Shown piece by piece: positions 1,101 through 10,024 of a stretch of 10,024 bases of DNA. A model generated the notes under the pieces. It made no database searches, was not told the origin of the DNA, and worked only from the letters and a program-made list of their open reading frames with translations. The position numbers were made by a program, and so were the translations under genes. The DNA lies in the IMG/VR virus record IMGVR_UViG_2671180864_000013; one strand, written 5' to 3'. Origin of the DNA: a virus (lineage: Duplodnaviria > Heunggongvirae > Uroviricota > Caudoviricetes). Positions within the stretch are counted from its first letter, which is position 1. Every line of letters begins with the position of its first letter.

Positions 1101-1180
1101 TTCCGCGCCGACCCGCCCCGTGGACAGGCCCCCCCCACCAGGAGGACCCGCAAAAAAGGCGGCTGCTGCCGCCTTGTTCT
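1101..1180. repeat. Copy A of an ~80-bp repeat (C-rich core 1112-1144 plus terminator hairpin)
   Basis: Aligns in register with 3631-3710; the 33-bp core cccgccccgtggacaggccNcccccaccaggag matches 32/33. Confidence 0.7.
1151..1175 (-). terminator. Intrinsic terminator ending the capsid operon
   Basis: Minus-strand RNA reads AAGGCGGC-AGCA-GCCGCCUU followed by UUUUG, starting a few bases after the capsid stop at 1180. Confidence 0.6.
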
Positions 1181-3060
1181 CATGAAGAAATCGCTCTGAC
1201 CATTCCGCGATAATCCAGAGCAGCAACGCCAGCATCAATGCGGACCTTCCAGGCCACACCGTCAACAATAAAGCCCTCCTGCTGCTCAAGGTAAGGCTCG
1301 TCATTACCGTCAAGATAAGCCACCTCAATTGTGTCCGTTCCCTGTGCTGAAAGCATGTACCATTGCTTATCACTGACTTCATCAAGGCGGGGATCGACAA
1401 TAATATCCAGTTGTTTGTGGTACGGGTTATATGAACCACTGTTTGTATCGGCACCGAAAGGCGTGGTTGAGTTAACCATTTGCAACGCTCTGTCTTCCAG
1501 AGCCGCAGGAACAAGAAGGAATTTTGGCACAATATTCAGCACCTCACCGTTTTCATCCCTCTGTGTGCGCATTGCACGGCGTGCAATGCCAAGCCCTGTA
1601 GTGCTGACTCCGTTATCAATATCATTTCCGTGTTTTTTGCTGAACAGCGGTATACCGTCAGAAAGCTTTGTGTTTCCTGTCAGCACCAGATGAACCAGAT
1701 TACCCACCGTTCTGGCGGCTGCTCGCCCCATTGCCTGTGGGATAACTGTTAACTGATTCAGGTCATCGTTAATAATCGCCTGTCGGGTAATGCTGAAAAT
1801 ATTTCCGTAAGTTGCCAGCGCGATTGGTTCGCCACGGTCACTGGTGGTGATGTATTTATATTCCGCGCCTTCCGGCACTTTGTTTAATGTAGAGAAGCCA
1901 TTCAGGCCAACACGACGTGCCTCATGGAAGTTTGACAATGAACCTTTTTTCGTCCACTGGCGGAACGTTTCGCCGCTGTGTTCCCATCCGGCAAGCACGG
2001 ATTTTTCAGCACCACCAGCAAGGATATAAGTAAAATCGCTGCTGCTGTGGGTGAATGCCGCGTTTACTATCTGCGAGCGTGTGCTGTAGCTGCCTGTGCT
2101 TATGCCGCGATGGGTTAATGATGCCTGTGCCATATCGAAAAGGCTCATCATGGCGTAAGGGTTGCCGCGTTCTGCCTGTTCATGTCCCAGACGCGCATTA
2201 AGCCCCTGACGCATTGCATCGCCGGTTATGTTGCCGTTATCCGTGTACGCGTAGTAAAGATTTGCGGGGGTGGTTTTGTTTGTCGGTGTCGATTCTTTAC
2301 CCATAGTGAGTAAAAGGCGTTCGCGTGCATCCTCAACGCTACAGCCTGAATCAGCAAGACAACTTATAGCCAGGTCGTTATATCTTCCATTGAACGTGCC
2401 AAACAATTCACGTATCCCGTTGAGTCGTTCCTGTTCTCCGCTGCCAGTTTTCTGGCTGATCATGCTTTTAATATTTTCCGGCATATTCGAAAAATCTCCG
2501 ATTCGTTTTGATTCAATTCTGGCCATTGCTGTAATCGCGGGTATAACCTCATCTGCGAAGCCATTAGCCTTACACTCATTGCCATCCATCCAGGTTTCCG
2601 CCTCCATCATGGCGGTGATTTCCTGTTTGCTCCTGCCCGTTCTTCCGGCGTAGGTTTCCGCCATCGTGTCGCCCAGCTTGTCCATCAGGTCAGCAAAGCG
2701 GCGAACGTCGCCCGACACTCCGGCAGTAACACCACGGGGGGCATGTATCATCATCATCGCGTTTTCAGGCATAACGATGTGATCGCCACACATGGCAATA
2801 AACGAGGCCATAGAAGCCGCCATGCCTTCAATGTGTACAATTTTCTTTGCCGGATGATTTTTCAGGGCGTTATAGATAGCCAGCCCTTCAAAGATGTCGC
2901 CACCAGGTGAATGGATGCGAAGATGGATTTCAGGCACATTACCGCACGCGTTGATCTCGTCAGTAAGTGCCGATGCTTTTACACCGTACCCGCCGATCTC
3001 GTCATAAATGCGTACATGTACAACATCAGCCATAGCCTTAATGGAAAACCATGTTTTCAT
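1180..3060 (-). CDS. Fused prohead protease (ClpP / S14-like) and HK97-fold major capsid protein, 626 aa
   Basis: N-terminal ~180 aa carry ClpP-like motifs (IHSPGGDIFEGLAIYNAL ... GMAASMASFIAMCGDHIVMPENAMMMIHAP). The C-terminal ~430 aa resemble HK97-type major capsid proteins. AGGAG RBS 8 nt upstream of the ATG at 3058-3060. Confidence 0.8.
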   Translation of the reverse strand: MKTWFSIKAMADVVHVRIYDEIGGYGVKASALTDEINACGNVPEIHLRIHSPGGDIFEGLAIYNALKNHPAKKIVHIEGMAASMASFIAMCGDHIVMPENAMMMIHAPRGVTAGVSGDVRRFADLMDKLGDTMAETYAGRTGRSKQEITAMMEAETWMDGNECKANGFADEVIPAITAMARIESKRIGDFSNMPENIKSMISQKTGSGEQERLNGIRELFGTFNGRYNDLAISCLADSGCSVEDARERLLLTMGKESTPTNKTTPANLYYAYTDNGNITGDAMRQGLNARLGHEQAERGNPYAMMSLFDMAQASLTHRGISTGSYSTRSQIVNAAFTHSSSDFTYILAGGAEKSVLAGWEHSGETFRQWTKKGSLSNFHEARRVGLNGFSTLNKVPEGAEYKYITTSDRGEPIALATYGNIFSITRQAIINDDLNQLTVIPQAMGRAAARTVGNLVHLVLTGNTKLSDGIPLFSKKHGNDIDNGVSTTGLGIARRAMRTQRDENGEVLNIVPKFLLVPAALEDRALQMVNSTTPFGADTNSGSYNPYHKQLDIIVDPRLDEVSDKQWYMLSAQGTDTIEVAYLDGNDEPYLEQQEGFIVDGVAWKVRIDAGVAALDYRGMVRAISS

Positions 3061-4429: not shown

Positions 4430-4657
4430 CTTCACCTGTTCACCTTTTGCAATTTTCCCTTTTTATTCATGATGTTAATGGGTTAACAGTTTCACAAAAA
4501 CTATTCACCAACTGTTCACCACTGTTCACCCTTAAAGCTCAATAAAGAATCAAAAAGGTGAACAGTGAATAGTTTGGTGAACAGTTCATAAATAACTGTT
4601 CACCCTATAATATACTGATATAAAAGACATTTATTGCAGGGTGAACAGTGGTGAACA
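4430..4657. repeat. Replication origin candidate: eight perfect TGTTCACC / GGTGAACA octamers plus variants, with AT-rich tracts
   Basis: Forward TGTTCACC at 4437, 4513, 4523, 4597; reverse GGTGAACA at 4557, 4576, 4640, 4650; variants at 4430-4436 and 4502-4509. Two tandem pairs have 10-bp spacing. Sits immediately 3' of the primase gene. Confidence 0.7.
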
Positions 4658-4698: not shown

Positions 4699-6489
4699 CT
4701 ATGCACATGATGGCATCCAGTCTTCTGAATCCTCTGTCAGGGTCACATTTGAACGCAAACCGTGCTTCGTTTTCCGTTTCATATACTCCCTGCCATATTC
4801 CGCCATTGCCCCCGGCATATCTTTACCGAAGCGCGTCAGTGTTACAGGTTTACCGAATCCGTGTGCCCTCATATATGCCAGATAGGCGTGATAAAGATAC
4901 CTGCGCGGACTGAACGGAATAATTTCGGCATTACCCACTAACAGACCATCACACATTACCGACGACATGAGATAGCCGCAGAAGTCCACCAGCGAATCGC
5001 CCTCGCGTTTTATCACCAGAGCTTCTTCTGATTTCTGCTGCTCATACAGCAGGCGTTTAGCTTCGTCCTGGTCAGAAAAACGAGTAAGCAGGTGGCGAAT
5101 CACAACCGCCAGCTCTCCTTCTATTTTTTCTGCCAGCATGGGGTCGCGTTCGTTCTCCGGTACAACTTCCGAAAAATTGAATATCACCCGACGACGTGAG
5201 ATCCCCCCGCTGCGGTCACTGAATGACATGGCGTTATTGTTAACCGCCAGCACTACTGCCGGAATACGCGTTGAGTAGGGGGCTTTGTGTTTCGGGTCAA
5301 TTGCCACCTTGTCACCGCCTGTAATGGCCTTAATCCCTGCCCCATCACCAGCGTAGCGGGTCATATCCGGCATGATAATCAGCGAAAAGCCAACCACTAA
5401 CGCGCGTTCCCTTGCATCTTCCAGCGCCTTCATGCTTGCCGATACTGTGTTGGCCTTACCCGCCAGCATGGTGCAAATCTCCGCCATCACGCTTTTACCA
5501 CTTCCCCCTGGACCTGTTACCTCAATGAATAACTGCCAGTCGTACCGGTTCGCCAGCACCATGAATAATACAGCCAGTACGCGATCCGCCTTGCGGTCAT
5601 TCTCAGCCACCGAACGGCGTAACCACTTCCAGAAATTCGGCGCATGTGTTGCCAGCGTTTCCCCCTCTGCTGGTGGGCTGAAAGGTAATTCACTGGCAAT
5701 TAACAACCAGTCGTTTTTGTTATGCTCCCGAAAATTACCTGTTCTGGTATCAAATACCCCGTTACTGAATCCAATCAGGTTACGGGCTGTATTCCCCATT
5801 ACAGGCAAACTTAACTTCATGGTATCGACCGCCGATTTAATGGCGTTCTGCGAATAGCTGATCTCCGCATCAATGAAAATCTGTGCCATAGCTCGCTGTA
5901 ATTCTTTATCCTGTACTGGCTCCCATACAACGCCGTTGTAATGGTGAACAGTGTCAGAGTCAGCATGAATCGCCAGTTCACCGCCATAATGTGCCAGGAG
6001 AACTTCGCCGCGTTGACTTGCTCCCATCTGGTTAAGCGCCAGTGATGAAGCGTTATCGTCTTTTACCCGCTCTTTTTTCTTTACAGGCAGTTCAACTACC
6101 TTTTTCTTTTCCGCCTGCTCTGCCCGTTCACGTTCCAGATATTCGCGCCAGTTCTCCCGTTTCTGGCTGTGCATTCCTTCAGGGTAATAATCAGCATCCC
6201 TGACACCTGCCACTGCCAGTTTCTGCCCGATGGTATTAACAAGCCCCGGACGCAATAACCCCGCCTGATAGAGACGCACGCGATAGCGTCCGTCCGGTAC
6301 GATTTGCAGGTTGTCCAGTTCGGCAAGTTGTTGCTCTCCAAGCCAGACAGGTGGCACGTTATCGCCAGCCAGTCGCCCGTCCTGTTCCTGCCACTGTTTC
6401 GCATGTGCCCACGCATCACTACCCGCAAAAATGATGACTTCCGTCATTTTGTCACGCGGCTGGTGTTTTAAATTTGGCGCTTTTTTCAT
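4699..6489 (-). CDS. Replication protein: primase / SF3 helicase (P4 alpha-like, D5-type NTPase), 596 aa
   Basis: Walker A motif GPGGSGKS inside a P4-family NTPase-like region. Start taken at the ATG at 6487-6489 (GGAGAG RBS; ATGA overlap with the upstream ORF stop) rather than the GTG at 6504. Iteron origin lies directly downstream. Confidence 0.85.
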   Translation of the reverse strand: MKKAPNLKHQPRDKMTEVIIFAGSDAWAHAKQWQEQDGRLAGDNVPPVWLGEQQLAELDNLQIVPDGRYRVRLYQAGLLRPGLVNTIGQKLAVAGVRDADYYPEGMHSQKRENWREYLERERAEQAEKKKVVELPVKKKERVKDDNASSLALNQMGASQRGEVLLAHYGGELAIHADSDTVHHYNGVVWEPVQDKELQRAMAQIFIDAEISYSQNAIKSAVDTMKLSLPVMGNTARNLIGFSNGVFDTRTGNFREHNKNDWLLIASELPFSPPAEGETLATHAPNFWKWLRRSVAENDRKADRVLAVLFMVLANRYDWQLFIEVTGPGGSGKSVMAEICTMLAGKANTVSASMKALEDARERALVVGFSLIIMPDMTRYAGDGAGIKAITGGDKVAIDPKHKAPYSTRIPAVVLAVNNNAMSFSDRSGGISRRRVIFNFSEVVPENERDPMLAEKIEGELAVVIRHLLTRFSDQDEAKRLLYEQQKSEEALVIKREGDSLVDFCGYLMSSVMCDGLLVGNAEIIPFSPRRYLYHAYLAYMRAHGFGKPVTLTRFGKDMPGAMAEYGREYMKRKTKHGLRSNVTLTEDSEDWMPSCA

Positions 6490-6785
6490 TTCTGCTCTCT
6501 CCACGCGGCAATCATGTTTTTTAGTTCCTGTAGTTTTTTATCAACATCCATACATGACACATGGTTATTTCTGGAAAGCGGGATTTCCCGACTGAATCTG
6601 CTAATAAAGATCTCCACGTTCAGCGAACTAAGAAATGAATAGCCATCACGGATAAAATACACACGGTCAAACATCAGTTCTTTTACCGTTACTCTGTTAC
6701 CGTTCTTATCCAGATAAATAGCGCCGGGGATAATTTGGGGGTGTGCATAACCGCTGGCAGTCAAGCCAGATAAATACGTTCTCAT
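6486..6785 (-). CDS. Hypothetical protein (99 aa), coupled to the primase gene
   Basis: ATG at 6783-6785; its TGA stop overlaps the primase ATG. No recognisable motif. Confidence 0.5.
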   Translation of the reverse strand: MRTYLSGLTASGYAHPQIIPGAIYLDKNGNRVTVKELMFDRVYFIRDGYSFLSSLNVEIFISRFSREIPLSRNNHVSCMDVDKKLQELKNMIAAWREQK

Positions 6786-6791
6786 GATTAT

Positions 6792-7112
6792 TTATCCCCG
6801 ATTTGAATCAGTATTCGCTTTCTTTATAGCATTTAATGCATCTGTGGCATTTTCAATGGTGCACCGTAACGAAATATCAAAATGTCCAAGCATTGCCAGT
6901 AACAAACCGATATTACCCATATCAATGCGCATGGCCTTTTCGTCATAGTCCTCATTTTCTGACGCATGCCACATCAGGCTACCAATTGACGCAACAGCCA
7001 TTGATATATTGTCAGTAGCCCCATCCGCAGCGGAATAAACCTTTTTAGCAATATCATGCTCACAGTTAAAATGCGGATTAATCAGGTACTGGTAATTTGA
7101 CATATCAGGCAT
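6792..7112 (-). CDS. Hypothetical acidic protein (106 aa)
   Basis: ATG at 7110-7112 preceded by a G-run; overlaps the upstream ORF stop by 8 nt. Asp/Glu-rich. Confidence 0.5.
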   Translation of the reverse strand: MPDMSNYQYLINPHFNCEHDIAKKVYSAADGATDNISMAVASIGSLMWHASENEDYDEKAMRIDMGNIGLLLAMLGHFDISLRCTIENATDALNAIKKANTDSNRG

Positions 7113-7308
7113 GGCACCCCCCCTGACGAATACGGGCGGCGAATACCATCACGCAGCCAGCCGGGGATTGCTGGCGTGCTTCCTGTTCGCTGCTGGCCTC
7201 AATGGTAATCACGCGCGGTTGTGCCGTGCTCAGGGCGATAAAACGCCAGATGTATTTATTCAGGTTGTACGAGTCCCGCCCTTGCGGGTGTATGGTATGA
7301 TTTCTCAT
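7105..7308 (-). CDS. Hypothetical small protein (67 aa), first gene of the leftward operon
   Basis: Start taken at the internal ATG (7306-7308) with a GAGG RBS. The track ORF begins at a TTG at 7398, only 9 bp from the operator palindrome and without a clean RBS, so that extension is less likely. Confidence 0.4.
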   Translation of the reverse strand: MRNHTIHPQGRDSYNLNKYIWRFIALSTAQPRVITIEASSEQEARQQSPAGCVMVFAARIRQGGCHA

Positions 7309-7406
7309 AGCTGCCTCGATACTCTCGTTATCGTTGGTGGTTAGACGCCCCGTATGTGTTTCCGGCACTGCGGGGCGTTGCTCTTTGTATTTCAACAATC
7401 CTTTCG

Positions 7407-7484
7407 GTGTGTTTCATGTTATGAGCGCATGAAACACACGTCAAGGCTTTTTGTATTTCTTTTTTTGTGTATACTGAAACACAC
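7407..7484. promoter_or_regulatory. Divergent promoter/operator switch
   Basis: 12-bp inverted repeat GTGTGTTTCATG (7407-7418) / CATGAAACACAC (7428-7439) with a 9-bp spacer, plus a third GAAACACAC half-site (7476-7484). Leftward sigma70-like promoter TTGACG (7444-7439)-N17-TAACAT (7421-7416) is overlapped by the palindrome. Rightward -10 TATACT (7470-7475) abuts the third half-site. Confidence 0.55.
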
Positions 7485-7505
7485 CGATGATTAGGAGTTT
7501 CAGAA

Positions 7506-7811
7506 ATGGCAACGGCTAACAAAAACGCAAAATCACAACTGACAACTGTCAGAGTCCCACTAGATGTTATGCAAGGGATGGAATCCGTTAAGCTGGACGG
7601 CGAAAGCAATGCCGGATTTATCGTAACCGCCATGCGCGGAGAAATAGCCCGCCGCCAAGCAGAAGGCAGCGGAGAAAATCCCCTTGTGTCGTCACTGGAT
7701 GCCCTGGCTAAGGTCGAACAAATCGGCATCAAAGCAGCGGAAGAAATCGGGCAGCTTGTCACCGTTGCACGCGAAGAACTCCAGCGTCGCAAGACCAAAG
7801 AACCAGAGTAA
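7506..7811 (+). CDS. Putative ribbon-helix-helix (CopG/Arc-like) DNA-binding regulator, 101 aa
   Basis: AGGAG RBS (7493-7497) 8 nt before the ATG. N-terminus fits the RHH pattern (TTVRVPLDVMQGMESVKLDGESNAGFIVTAM). Codon usage looks coding; the opposite-strand 272-aa ORF looks like an antisense artefact. Confidence 0.55.
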   Translation: MATANKNAKSQLTTVRVPLDVMQGMESVKLDGESNAGFIVTAMRGEIARRQAEGSGENPLVSSLDALAKVEQIGIKAAEEIGQLVTVAREELQRRKTKEPE

Positions 7812-7868
7812 TCACCATCAGCGCCGTGGTGTAAGGTATTACGGCGCATTGCTATGCAGGACAACACA

Positions 7869-8042
7869 ATGACCGATAAAGAATTGACCAAAACATTATC
7901 ACCGGCACGGAAAAGACGGCGCAGAAAGATAGAGCATGAATCAGAAAGATTCGCGCCATGTGCTTTTGCTCTTGAGAAATTCCTTAAAGAGCACAGGAAA
8001 AAGCTCTCGTTGCAAACCTTGGAACGAACAAAATCTGACTGA
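7869..8042 (+). CDS. Hypothetical small basic protein (57 aa)
   Basis: ATG at 7869 with AGGA 7 nt upstream (the track ORF starts at 7854). Lys/Arg-rich (RKRRRRK). Followed by a plus-strand terminator. Confidence 0.3.
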   Translation: MTDKELTKTLSPARKRRRRKIEHESERFAPCAFALEKFLKEHRKKLSLQTLERTKSD

Positions 8043-8109
8043 TCACATTGCCCACCAGCCGCAAATGTGGCATTGTTGGTGATGCGTTCAAGTTTAGTGT
8101 GTATCCATT

Positions 8110-8137
8110 GGCGACCGCCCCCGGTCGTCTTTGTTTT
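8110..8137 (+). terminator. Intrinsic terminator of the plus-strand unit, convergent with alpA
   Basis: Stem 8110-8116 / 8123-8129 (GC-rich, one G-U wobble), 6-nt loop, then TTTGTTTT (8130-8137). Confidence 0.5.
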
Positions 8138-8156
8138 ATATGTCATATGCTCCCCT

Positions 8157-8366
8157 TTACGCTGCCTTACCTGAATTAATGCGATCCCGGCTTTTAACCC
8201 ATTCCATAACCTCGGACAGCAGCCAACCTACAGAACGCCCACCAAGATTACGGCGAGACGGAAAGCTCCCTTTTTTCTCCAGTTCGTAGCGTGTAGTGCG
8301 ACACACTCCAGTTAACTTACGACATTCATCCTCACGGATTACGCGATCTTCATTTATTTCACGCAT
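8157..8366 (-). CDS. alpA: AlpA-family (prophage CP4-57 regulatory protein-like) transcriptional regulator, 69 aa
   Basis: The segment RVIREDECRKLTGVCRTTRYELEKKGSFPSRRNLGGRSVGWLLSEVMEWVKSR parallels E. coli AlpA by eye. Start uncertain: ATG at 8364-8366 gives typical AlpA length but has no RBS; the GTG at 8451-8453 has an AAGAGG directly upstream and gives 98 aa. Confidence 0.75.
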   Translation of the reverse strand: MREINEDRVIREDECRKLTGVCRTTRYELEKKGSFPSRRNLGGRSVGWLLSEVMEWVKSRDRINSGKAA

Positions 8367-8785
8367 ACAAAAACCTACATAAAAATTACGTATATAAACT
8401 TTTCTCTTAGCTGTAGATATATGAGATCGGATATTACTTAGATTCTTTTTCACCTCTTAAATTAAAAACACAACCATACTAAAGGCTTTGTTCGCTAAGG
8501 TTCGTAGAAGCTCGTTAGTGTTTAAAATCGTGTCACGAGTTTTTAAGCGACGCAACAAAAAATGTCGTCATTTGGCATGTCACCTGAATTACCTCATTAA
8601 AAACAAATAGATAAACCATCAGGTGTTGGAACAATCAAGAAACAGAGAATAAGAACTCAGAAGAAGACATTTCAATTTTTTTCGATAGTTGACACATATA
8701 AAGAGAAGATATTTGCAGATATTCCCCGATATTCTAAGATCTATTCACGGCTGTAATCTCTTAAAGAAAAAACAGCCGTAATTTG

Positions 8786-10024
8786 TCAAGAATTTTGGGG
8801 GTAAATTCGCGGGGTCATAACAACGATTTTTTCATCATTGTTCTGGAGAAGCTCGAGACGGTCTACCCATAGATTAAGAGCGTCACGCTTTGCATCGAGA
8901 TAACGGGAGTGGTTATAGACGCGTTGCATTCCTGGCATCTGGTGGGCAGTAAGCTGTTCGACAATATGCGGATCCACGCCTAAATCGTTCAGCATGGTTG
9001 TAAATGTGTGCCGGATGTCGTGCAACGACCAGGGGGTTTGATTAATGCGTCTGTGTGCCGTTCTTCCGTACTCTGCTACGGATGATTGCCCTTTCAGTTC
9101 TCCAAGCAATAAGCCCGTGTGCCTGTTCTGCTCCACCAGCTTCATGACGAACGGCAAGATCGCTTCCGGTATTGGCCTGAATATTGCTACCTTCGTTTTG
9201 CTGTGTTCTTTCGGCACAGTCCAGAGCATTTCTTTAAAATCCCATTCCCGAACCTCGGAGCGTCTTAGCTCAGTGGTACGGCATCCGAAGACAATCAGAA
9301 GGCGAATTAAAGCGCTGTAGTACGGCGGGAAAATTTTTTCATCCAGTGCGCGGAGTAGCTCGCCAAGCTCCTTGTTTGTTAGCACTCGCTCGCTTATTTC
9401 TGCTTTTTTTCCCACATCACCTACGACCATATCATCAAGAACGTTACTGACGGCGTAGCGACGTTTACGGCAGTACTTAAGCGCCTGTTTGCATACCTGC
9501 AACAAAAAGCCGGCTGATACCGGATTACGCTTAGCAAGCTGGTCAAAACAGGCCAGCCAGTGGCGTAGCTCGCATTTATCCAGCGGCATAGCACCAATCT
9601 GGCTGATTATGTGCTTATTGATACGGCTTTTCAGTGATTCGTGGTCAGTGCGCTTTTCCTTCGCATACGACTCAAGCCAGTAAGTGAGCGCGTCCTTAAC
9701 CGTCACAGGGGCTAACGCTTCCTGCACTGTGTGATTAAGCTCATGGCGTGGATTTTTCCCCTCCGCCAGCCAGGCGCGACACTGTGCCGCTTTTTCCCTG
9801 GCTGCTTTCAGGCTCAGATCGGGATAGTTGCCCAGTCTCAGGCGTTCCGGTGATACCTGCCTGCCAGTTCCGGCCCTGTAAGTGAAATACCAGGTTAACA
9901 GGCCGCTGGTGGAATGTCTTACGCTAAGATTGCCACCGTCATTAAAAAAGGCGTTTTTTGTGGTTGGTGATCCGCTTAATTTTCGTAAAAGAGTGTCGCT
10001 AAGTCTATGAATTGCGCTGCTCAT
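8786..10024 (-). CDS. int: Tyrosine recombinase / integrase, P4-like, 412 aa
   Basis: N-terminal arm-binding-like region (FNDGGNLSVRH ... WYFTYR ... LGNYPDLSLKAAREKA) and C-terminal catalytic region with HDIRHT and downstream Tyr. The ATG is at the window edge, so a longer N-terminus cannot be excluded. Confidence 0.9.
   Translation of the reverse strand: MSSAIHRLSDTLLRKLSGSPTTKNAFFNDGGNLSVRHSTSGLLTWYFTYRAGTGRQVSPERLRLGNYPDLSLKAAREKAAQCRAWLAEGKNPRHELNHTVQEALAPVTVKDALTYWLESYAKEKRTDHESLKSRINKHIISQIGAMPLDKCELRHWLACFDQLAKRNPVSAGFLLQVCKQALKYCRKRRYAVSNVLDDMVVGDVGKKAEISERVLTNKELGELLRALDEKIFPPYYSALIRLLIVFGCRTTELRRSEVREWDFKEMLWTVPKEHSKTKVAIFRPIPEAILPFVMKLVEQNRHTGLLLGELKGQSSVAEYGRTAHRRINQTPWSLHDIRHTFTTMLNDLGVDPHIVEQLTAHQMPGMQRVYNHSRYLDAKRDALNLWVDRLELLQNNDEKIVVMTPRIYPQNS

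Follow-up and report, generated by a model that had tools for sequence, protein, structure and literature searches.

Three small open reading frames probably form a translationally coupled operon head in front of the primase-helicase of an Escherichia coli PICI-type satellite

In phage P1, the immunity region immI carries the c4 RNA, icd and ant1/ant2, and Icd is annotated as a cell-division inhibitor that is required for ant expression. The left operon of P4 is ordered as CI RNA, an Icd-like open reading frame (ORF) in the kil/eta region, epsilon, orf151, orf106 and alpha; we take the P4 gene kil to be this Icd-like ORF, and cnr to be the alpha-adjacent orf106. In the isrK-orf45-anrP arrangement of Gifsy-1 in Salmonella, experiments demonstrated that translation of orf45, which overlaps anrP by AUGA, is required for anrP, and a structured leader sequesters the ribosome-binding site of the small upstream ORF (PMC4825925). 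According to a previous study of Escherichia coli phage-inducible chromosomal islands (PICIs), the island cycle is activated by AlpA, and all PICIs analysed encode RgdR (PMC6092414). In the literature on PICIs, no genes beyond int, alpA and pri are named, and RgdR has been treated as a virulence regulator. Here, we analysed a stretch of 10,024 nucleotides from a virus record (IMG/VR IMGVR_UViG_2671180864_000013, Caudoviricetes; hereafter the window), in which three small ORFs of 67, 106 and 99 aa (ORF67, ORF106 and ORF99) precede a gene for a D5/P4-type primase-helicase. The three ORFs are genuine genes which head the early/replication operon of an E. coli PICI-type satellite, and we hold our explanation as a whole, including the mechanism proposed below, with moderate confidence. 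Such satellites abound in E. coli and related bacteria, and it matters how this operon is switched on and what its small genes do.

All four genes are on the minus strand, with ORF67 at 7105..7308 (ATG start, first gene of the operon), ORF106 at 6792..7112, ORF99 at 6486..6785, and the primase-helicase at the end of the coupled chain at 4699..6489 (596 aa from the ATG at 6489; matches to PF08706, PF19263, PF03288 and TIGR01613). The stop of ORF67 overlaps the start of ORF106 by 8 nt (ATGCCTGA, 7105-7112), a gap of 6 nt (ATAATC, 6786-6791) separates the ORF106 stop from the ORF99 start, with GGGGA 9 nt upstream of the ATG, and the TGA of ORF99 and the ATG of the primase share ATGA (6486-6489). 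A Shine-Dalgarno (SD)-like element is present at each of the three small-ORF starts: GAGG at 7314-7317 for ORF67, whose ATG is at 7308, and, for ORF106, a run of seven G (7117..7123) inside the last ORF67 codons. An earlier reading made without database searches (the sequence-only reading) had described three ORFs of these lengths running into the primase by overlapping stop and start signals, and the coordinates, the 8-nt overlap and the ATGA were all confirmed. The three-ORF module is 100% identical to that of E. coli SMS-3-5 (L001), and the RefSeq coding-sequence calls in that identical sequence are the same three ORFs.

The same geometry recurs in a primase-anchored collection of 72 loci from Enterobacterales, Orbaceae and Pasteurellaceae. 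An Icd-like domain is encoded upstream of the primase in 39 of these loci, and it comes first in all 25 that were mapped. The junction between the Icd-like gene and the next gene is an 8-nt overlap (ATGNNTRA) in 27 of 34 distinct cases and a 4-nt overlap in another 4, and an AGGAGG/GGGGG element lies within the last Icd codons at 27 of the 34 junctions, whichever gene (60-136 aa) follows. The 4-nt overlap into the primase also recurs across genera. In Xenorhabdus and Photorhabdus, many Icd-like ORFs have lost the core and are only 41 aa long; those that were checked still have the leader RNA described below, and in most of them the 8-nt overlap is still there, suggesting that a 'launch-pad' role of the Icd-like ORF is conserved beyond the protein. 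Judging from these junctions, the coupling geometry is under selection across genera.

Comparison of six alleles with 93-98% identity showed all frames to be intact in 6/6. The length of ORF106 and ORF99 is constant in all six, and ORF67 is 67 aa long in five of them; the sixth, the swapped allele L088, has 62 aa. In L088, an Icd-like gene of the type found in Sakai Sp7 is joined to the same ORF106 and ORF99; recombination therefore occurs at the ORF67/ORF106 junction. The ratio of nonsynonymous to synonymous substitution rates (dN/dS) among these alleles was 0.08-0.43 for ORF106 and 0.11-0.45 for ORF99, and both are under purifying selection. Among 5426 complete E. coli genomes, a sensitive search detected part of the module in 1727 and the whole trio in 446. 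Most of the remaining genomes among the 1727 have only the Icd-like gene and its upstream leader, indicating that the head is widely shared and the downstream cassette interchangeable. When GenBank phages were searched by tblastn, ORF67 had one match, in a 16.5-kb 'induced prophage', and ORF99 had none; from this near-absence, the genes belong to satellites and not to bona fide phages. Sequence and profile searches of the PDB with all three families gave nothing with E below 0.4.

ORF67 matches NF033153 with 69.6 bits (cut-off 25; E 1.7e-19; residues 19-62) and P1 Icd with 35% identity over 43 aa by BLASTP (E 2e-6), and the motif IWRF...A[ST]E.EAR.Q.P.G...F.AR is common to ORF67 and P1 Icd. 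By this similarity, ORF67 is an Icd-like protein, of the family that includes P1 Icd and the first ORF of the P4 left operon, and it might inhibit division or growth of the host cell by analogy. Its position is that of an operon head: it is the first small ORF behind an RNA leader, and the start of the next gene overlaps its stop. An extended version of 97 aa starting from TTG (to 7398) was rejected, since the added part corresponds to the RNA leader and shows no conservation of its reading frame from locus to locus; a 272-aa ORF at 7328-8146 was likewise rejected as coding, the conservation being at the nucleotide level with different frames across loci. In P0001, L083 and L084, a G run that is one base shorter fuses ORF67 and ORF106 in frame to 171 aa, and the cluster of this Icd-like::ORF106 fusion has 36 member sequences, a weak hint that the two products may act together. 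The G run of the window, which doubles as the SD of ORF106, could be slippage-prone. ORF67 also matches phrog_6196 and phrog_1743, which are labelled 'transcriptional repressor' and whose members are Icd-like; the label is apparently a legacy artefact inherited from the obsolete annotation of a P4 cI protein. In an Escherichia ruysiae locus (L013, 1702-2712), tandem Icd-like domains, a truncated one followed by a complete one, occur in one frame, which suggests duplication or recombination between operon heads.

In front of ORF67 we identified a structured 5' leader on the minus strand (7303..7397), named here the 'class B' Icd leader, from covariation and a covariance model. Two different reading frames show conservation of the 'peptide' that precedes the Icd-like Met, so the leader is conserved as nucleotide sequence. 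When 31 distinct leaders from 11 genera were aligned and folded with RNAalifold, the result was helix 1 (7345-7378 in the window; 11 bp, 8 pairs with compensatory changes) and helix 3 (7317-7333; 5 bp, 4 such pairs), and between them the invariant box CUAACCA(C), which is CUAACCAC at 7337-7344. Pairing was possible in 94.2% of cells against 82.7% in shuffled alignments (0/500) and 25-43% in slid controls, and there were 12 compensatory pairs against 5.6 in shuffles (0/500). A single-sequence fold of the window leader gives both helices. The SD lies in the loop of helix 3 at most loci, and just 3' of the helix in the window and in L015. The covariance model, R1, scores 70.2 bits in the window and has 52 hits across 80 sources, each on the operon strand, including hits in Klebsiella, Serratia, Proteus, Xenorhabdus, Photorhabdus and Orbaceae; it was not found in P1 or P4. 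Conversely, Rfam searches of the whole window and of the 191-nt leader region with permissive filters detected no C4, c4-a1b1 or isrK at E <= 10, and the leader does not reach the gathering thresholds of the C4 clan (CL00128; RF01695/RF03163), whereas P1, P4, L023, L040 and L085 have isrK/c4-a1b1 and C4 at the leader position. Two classes of leader thus precede Icd-like genes, and the class of the window is uncurated. L085 also carries a remnant of a window-type leader upstream of its isrK-C4-Icd module. A search of the rest of the window for a complement of the CUAACCAC box, as an antisense partner would have, found nothing beyond chance.

The leader is preceded by a sigma-70-like promoter on the minus strand (7416..7444), with -35 TTGACG at 7444-7439, a spacer of 17 nt and -10 TAACAT at 7421-7416. 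The predicted transcription start is at about 7409, and the promoter stands about 100 nt upstream of the operon. Since it lies inside an operator-like palindrome, the promoter call gains support. A repeat search located operator-like repeats at 7393..7487, between the Icd-like operon and a divergent YlcI/YnfO-family gene (7506..7811, plus strand; 101 aa; NF041551, 1.6e-17): a 26-nt imperfect palindrome at 7393-7418/7428-7453 with the core GTGTGTTTCATG-n9-CATGAAACACAC, a further copy of TGAAACACAC at 7475-7484, and a fourth half-site, TGTGTTTC, at 7355-7362 in the loop of leader helix 1. In all, four GAAACACA half-sites are spread across 7355-7484, and a perfect palindrome of 12 bp among them overlaps the leftward promoter. 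The sequence-only reading had placed the three ORFs immediately downstream of a regulated leftward promoter; a plausibly regulated promoter is indeed located upstream, but it is not immediately adjacent because the structured leader intervenes. The YlcI/YnfO protein, which has a weak match, below the Pfam cut-off, to PF07704 ('Rv0623-like transcription factor'), is a candidate DNA-binding regulator of the operator region, and the same divergent arrangement is found in L001, in an O111 island (L002), in the circular record L086 and in a Kluyvera island (L007). The existence of a repressor in Gram-negative PICIs was called unclear (PMC6092414), and the YlcI/YnfO protein may be this long-sought repressor.

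We propose that, after activation of the island (AlpA-dependent in E. coli PICIs), ribosomes would enter the chain only at the leader-controlled Icd-like start, and terminating ribosomes would re-initiate from gene to gene along it. By such re-initiation, synthesis of the primase-helicase, and hence satellite replication, would depend on translation of the small ORFs and be tied to it in amount. The Icd-like product would stall division or growth of the host during satellite replication, ORF106 would be a protein-binding adaptor, and the DUF4222 protein (ORF99) would be a small basic DNA-binding accessory or regulator alongside the replication initiator; these roles of the three proteins in the satellite cycle are what we infer.

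Previous experiments on growth arrest are the closest functional data. In ECOR61, the T7-group accessory gene orf24 triggers cell death; suppressor insertions mapped to an Icd-like gene (9309-9675) and to the two ORFs that follow it (9131-9317 and 8940-9132), the effect needed six linked genes, a primase among them, and was abolished by loss of the Icd-like gene, and reconstitution in a laboratory strain gave a muted effect only (Silas et al., 10.1101/2023.04.06.535777). In the same study, Abc1 was the trigger for P4 in ECOR15, and suppressors lay in int, alpA, the Icd-like gene, a 106-aa ORF and the primase. As in the window, the ECOR61 locus has an Icd-like gene, small ORFs behind it, the first joined by an 8-nt overlap and the next by a short one, and a linked primase. 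Its middle ORFs of 61 and 63 aa, however, match the sizes of Sakai ECs1578/ECs1579 and not of ORF106, and the gene count agrees with a Sakai-type operon (Icd-like, 61, 63, 80, RgdR, primase). The ECOR61 Icd-like protein was described as carrying a lengthy extension at the N-terminus, whereas in the loci examined here the corresponding region is the non-coding leader. Overexpression of AlpA, in turn, caused run-away replication of EcCICFT073 and loss of viability (PMC6092414). By analogy, the ECOR61, ECOR15 and EcCICFT073 results support the view that expression of the operon may arrest growth.

These data could also be taken to mean that the operon primarily serves abortive infection or superinfection exclusion, in which a phage protein would de-repress it, the Icd-like protein, the other small proteins and the primase would arrest or kill the cell, and replication would be secondary. 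We regard this as a serious but rather doubtful alternative. It is favoured by the killing of ECOR61 by orf24 with suppressors that hit the Icd-like gene and a pair of small overlapping ORFs, by the need for all six genes, and by the similar response of P4 in ECOR15 to Abc1. The same observations, however, fit satellite induction with toxic run-away replication (PMC6092414), the proteins of the window matched no defence-system model in PADLOC, the middle genes of ECOR61 are by size not those of the window, and the effect in the laboratory strain was muted. The arrest data do not separate an abortive-infection purpose from ordinary satellite induction.

A wider hypothesis about the leader, which we offer as tentative, is that it is an uncurated regulatory RNA replacing the C4/CI immunity module, and that together with the Icd-like 'launch-pad' ORF it would form the switch that decides on satellite replication. 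The interchangeable cassette would then adjust the primase-helicase or act on factors of the helper or the host, and in deaths of the ECOR61 type it would be this switch that incoming phage trip. Roughly one in three complete E. coli genomes has the Icd-like head; the leader was modelled on the fetched loci only.

ORF99 matches PF13973 (DUF4222) with 60 bits (cut-off 27; 1.6e-16; residues 17-67), where RgdR itself scores 82 bits, and it aligns with RgdR (ECs1581) over 99/99 residues without gaps (E 8e-13). In Sakai Sp7, ECs1581 is directly upstream of the primase gene ECs1582 with the same ATGA overlap. According to previous studies, RgdR is a 99-aa protein encoded on O-island 51/CP-933C, with variants also in LEE-negative strains, LEE being the locus of enterocyte effacement (PMC3378721, PMC10877973); expressed from a plasmid, it turns on LEE1 and type III secretion, lowers motility and changes Congo red binding, and its DNA binding is non-specific (PMC3378721). 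An RGD tripeptide at residues 20-22 was reported to be important for the activation of type III secretion; the ED1a variant, with CGD at these positions, failed to activate it, and an engineered R20C change in ECs1581 caused no reduction (PMC3378721). Residues 20-22 are PGA or PGD in ORF99 and all its close homologues. Since the RGD tripeptide is missing, ORF99 is best classed as a member of the DUF4222/RgdR family and not as a functional RgdR orthologue, and it should not be assumed to share the LEE phenotype.

The DUF4222 gene abuts or overlaps a replication gene in the window, L086, Sakai Sp7, L085 and five matches from a plasmid collection, where, besides the circle L086, 5/7 DUF4222 matches cover a replication gene and 2 showed DUF4222 alone, the PLSDB gene tables being incomplete. 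The neighbour may be a D5 primase, a DUF5906 protein, a RepA-family helicase or an AAA ATPase, and the pairs that were closely examined are coupled by ATGA. This constant adjacency suggests that the DUF4222 family works with the replication initiator. It has also to be considered that ORF99 is mainly a host regulator like RgdR, acting on motility, the cell surface and, in LEE-positive strains, type III secretion, with its place next to the primase being incidental. The RgdR phenotypes of a protein of the same family, length and position speak for this idea, and the variants in LEE-negative strains suggest a broader regulon (PMC3378721, PMC10877973). Against it stand the 30% identity of ORF99 to RgdR and its lack of RGD (the CGD variant of ED1a failing to activate type III secretion, though R20C in ECs1581 did not reduce it), the non-specific DNA binding of RgdR, the origin of its phenotypes in plasmid expression, and the replication genes which the DUF4222 gene abuts or overlaps wherever the neighbour is annotated, which are hard to explain for a pure host regulator; we therefore consider this role unlikely.

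The sequence-only reading had assigned none of the three ORFs to a family and had called them uncharacterised. Neither statement holds, as ORF67 belongs to NF033153 and ORF99 to DUF4222/RgdR, and there are published RgdR phenotypes (PMC3378721), an annotation for P1 Icd and an ECOR61 Icd-like gene that is needed for arrest. That reading had also allowed for homology to housekeeping replication accessory proteins; none was found, though the family of ORF99 always adjoins genes for replication helicases or primases.

ORF106 has no match in Pfam, NCBIfam or PADLOC, and it belongs to phrog_15327 (2e-71), a family without known function. A word-indexed search gave about 19 clusters, nearly all from E. 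coli, an exhaustive HMMER search gave 15 matches only, and a profile search gave 48 proteins of 100-108 aa, adding Kluyvera, Klebsiella and Erwinia; the survey of loci further added Serratia, Proteus, Pluralibacter, Raoultella and Symbiopectobacterium. Relatives at the same operon position in Klebsiella, Kluyvera, Erwinia, Serratia and Proteus share 25-47% identity with ORF106. In Klebsiella and Kluyvera, the homologue lies within a chain of overlapping small ORFs from the Icd-like gene to the D5 primase, and in Pluralibacter and Proteus it is coupled straight to the primase (such islands being L012, L049 and L051). The AlphaFold2 model of ORF106 is a two-helix hairpin (confidence score, pLDDT, 83.8) with helices at 19-51 and 58-105, and the most conserved residues, G44, L46, M47 and Y56, are located at the C-terminal end of helix 1 and in the turn. 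On this model, ORF106 is a member of a small, Enterobacterales-only family of predicted two-helix hairpin proteins. Three large repeat proteins matched in the HMMER search were rejected as relatives: P0058 is an NB-ARC/TPR protein whose likeness is to a single TPR-like turn, and P0060 and P0063 are Ig-like repeat proteins with scores inflated by their repeats. Six of the Klebsiella and Erwinia relatives (P0073, P0077, P0081-P0083 and P0087) are named 'ubiquinol-cytochrome C reductase' in NCBI/UniRef, which is almost certainly a propagated misannotation.

Following P4 and PICIs, the sequence-only reading had suggested that such small proteins manipulate the helper or interfere with it, and in structure its comparison with P4 holds well: the gene order is the same, and epsilon overlaps the stop of the Icd-like ORF by 8 nt. 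ORF106, in the slot of epsilon, could thus be an antirepressor that induces a prophage, or the small proteins could interfere with a helper. The shared 8-nt overlap agrees with this, as do the interchangeable cassette behind the Icd-like head, which would be expected for helper-specific factors, and the helical hairpin, a plausible protein-binding module. What stands of the suggestion is position only, however. ORF106 has no sequence or profile similarity to epsilon (PF25738), orf151 or DUF5375, and HHalign comparisons of ORF106 and ORF99 with P4 epsilon, orf151 and orf106 and with the middle genes of Sakai and Klebsiella gave probabilities below 2% throughout; nor did PADLOC offer a match. 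Gram-negative PICIs are induced by the helper via alpA and not the reverse (PMC6092414), and the ORF106 relatives coupled to a primase (L012, L049 and L051) point to a replication module. We find this idea improbable. A resemblance of the N-terminus of P4 orf151 to the start of DUF4222 was rejected as well, being unsupported by Pfam.

That the ORFs are chance or decaying, untranslated frames in a defective prophage remnant, as high pairwise ORF67 dN/dS in some close comparisons and the lack of a curated family for ORF106 might suggest, is contradicted by the intact frames, the trio in 446 genomes, the purifying selection on ORF106 and ORF99, the cross-genus homologues in the same operon position, the conserved SD and overlap geometry and the discovery of this island type as a free circle, and we give it next to no credence.

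Returning to an operon head that feeds the primase-helicase, several observations weigh against this explanation. The promoter is a consensus match at 9/12 positions, and the number of such sites in the window is not above shuffle expectation. A predicted ACCA:UGG pairing of the leader box with the start codon is invariant and so escapes the covariation test, and the second codon in the window breaks one of the three ACCA:UGG pairs. For ORF67, dN/dS is noisy (0.17-3.4), owing to few substitutions and sites, and selection appears relaxed among close alleles. The modelled fold of ORF106 seems generic, without an informative match: fold searches with it gave a best E of 0.95 in the PDB and 0.55 in BFVD, the matches being generic hairpins (EsxB, UvsY and TraM). 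ORF99 is only 30% identical to RgdR, with PGA in place of RGD; its AlphaFold2 model, from a shallow alignment, has a pLDDT of 49 and was for this reason kept out of the fold search and of any argument from fold. HHalign found no homology between ORF99 and the neighbour of P4 alpha, orf106/DUF5375, so that an analogy of ORF99 with Cnr would be positional only. Finally, the ECOR61 operon is very likely homologous to that of the window, but this is judged from annotation, gene sizes and overlaps and not from sequence.

The context of the operon is that of a PICI. The genes int (8786-10024), for an AlpA-family regulator (8157..8453; PF05930, 4.8e-16) and for the primase follow the canonical order, all on the minus strand, and the operon is transcribed away from int. 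Past the primase, there are an 81-aa ORF, SSB, a 75-aa ORF and a fusion of ClpP-like prohead protease and major capsid protein (1180-3060; NF045540). A complete capsid/packaging module (major capsid protein, protease, portal, head-tail connector, HNH, TerS/TerL) was not detected in the window, and none of its proteins has a family match to the P4-like satellite markers psu, delta, sid and epsilon. Of the capsid/packaging genes, only the protease-capsid fusion is present in the window, in the O111 island L002 and in L086, L086 adding small tail-related genes, and the same early operon occurs with a full head/packaging module in SMS-3-5 (L001) and Sakai Sp7; in SMS-3-5, the module lies within an island with full head and packaging genes, a capsid-forming PICI. 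Together with L007, the first three make up a fusion-only subtype, portal and terminase being absent from the window and its 10-kb relatives.

The window as a whole is mosaic and occurs in one piece in no complete genome. Its best match is an island of about 10 kb between clpS and cspD (95% coverage, 92% identity), which has the protease-capsid fusion as its sole capsid gene. L086 (NZ_CP148328.1) is a circular record of 10,790 bp that was deposited as an E. coli plasmid; its genes are int, alpA, ylcI, the icd-like gene, a 106-aa ORF, DUF4222, primase, the ClpP-MCP (major capsid protein) fusion, a tail assembly protein and DUF1441, and its ORF99 is 95% identical to that of the window. As it shares the gene order of the window, the island type has been caught as a free circle, presumably an excised, replicating satellite. 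A stretch of 34% GC (4486-4599), which lies after the primase stop and before the 81-aa ORF, contains GGTGAAC/GTTCACC words and a long imperfect palindrome, and is probably the replication origin of the island, with iterons downstream of pri. Rfam matches to miRNAs in the window are spurious and caused by palindromes, this stretch among them. The Rfam int-alpA RNA motif (RF02996) occurs in the Pluralibacter island (L012, 343-410) and was undetected between int and alpA of the window. We also noted an isrN small RNA adjoining the Kluyvera island (L007, 3634-3776) and a CRISPR array adjoining the Photorhabdus locus (L030, 9149-9476).

The comparison with P4 also touches on annotation. The legacy P4 'cI gene product (AA 1-137)' contains the Icd-like domain at residues 85-132, and its residues 22-85 match Phage_ASH (PF10554) and overlap the CI RNA gene. 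In the P4 sequence (L082, 8168-8584), PF10554 matches this 'cI' ORF and not the epsilon coding sequence, which matches PF25738 ('Derepression'). As its match falls where the ORF and the CI RNA gene overlap, what PF10554 surveys and calls of 'Ash family protein' detect is probably a translated RNA region. Previously, PF10554 was used as an epsilon marker, and cnr, the copy-number regulator of P4, was placed between epsilon and alpha (PMC8628076). Annotation problems to be flagged are therefore the PHROG label 'transcriptional repressor', the name 'Ash family protein' on a translated RNA gene, and over-extended N-termini of Icd-like proteins.

It was already known that the operon is a very common feature of E. 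coli PICIs and that two of the three ORFs fall in named families, and no new biochemical function is assignable to the three. New here are the quantified conservation of the coupling geometry, the definition of the ORF106 family with its predicted fold, and a covariation-supported leader that is absent from Rfam.

Among known systems, Sakai Sp7 (OI-51/CP-933C; the capsid-forming PICI EcCIEDL933; ECs1577-ECs1582) resembles the window in having an Icd-like gene first (ECs1577, C-terminus FAARIRQGVCHA), behind the same class of leader (R1, 58 bits), and in ending its operon with a 99-aa DUF4222 protein, RgdR, and ATGA into the primase. It differs in its middle cassette of 61, 63 and 80 aa, which has no detectable homology to ORF106, and in its complete head/packaging module, whereas the island of the window has the protease-capsid fusion only. 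In P1, Icd has 73 aa with the same core motif and is likewise the first ORF behind a structured leader. The icd stop, however, overlaps the ant1 start by 4 nt instead of 8 nt, the gene that follows is an antirepressor and not part of a chain to a primase, and regulation is by the C4 antisense RNA with its a/b targets (Rfam C4 68.8 bits, c4-a1b1, isrK), which the window is without.

P4 shares the logic and order of its left operon with the window. Its Icd-like ORF has 65 aa, and epsilon overlaps the stop of this ORF by 8 nt, as ORF106 does in the window, but its leader is a C4-family CI RNA with an isrK-like seqA in place of the uncurated leader, and ORF106 and ORF99 have no relationship to epsilon (PF25738), orf151 or orf106 (DUF5375). 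Gifsy-1 has an RNA of the isrK/C4 class, with the IsrK small RNA activating in trans, and no such RNA was found in the window; its downstream gene encodes an antirepressor-like protein, whereas the chain of the window leads to a primase. The present comparison joins P1 Icd, the head of the P4 left operon, RgdR and the ECOR61 death locus in one picture of a translationally chained operon head.

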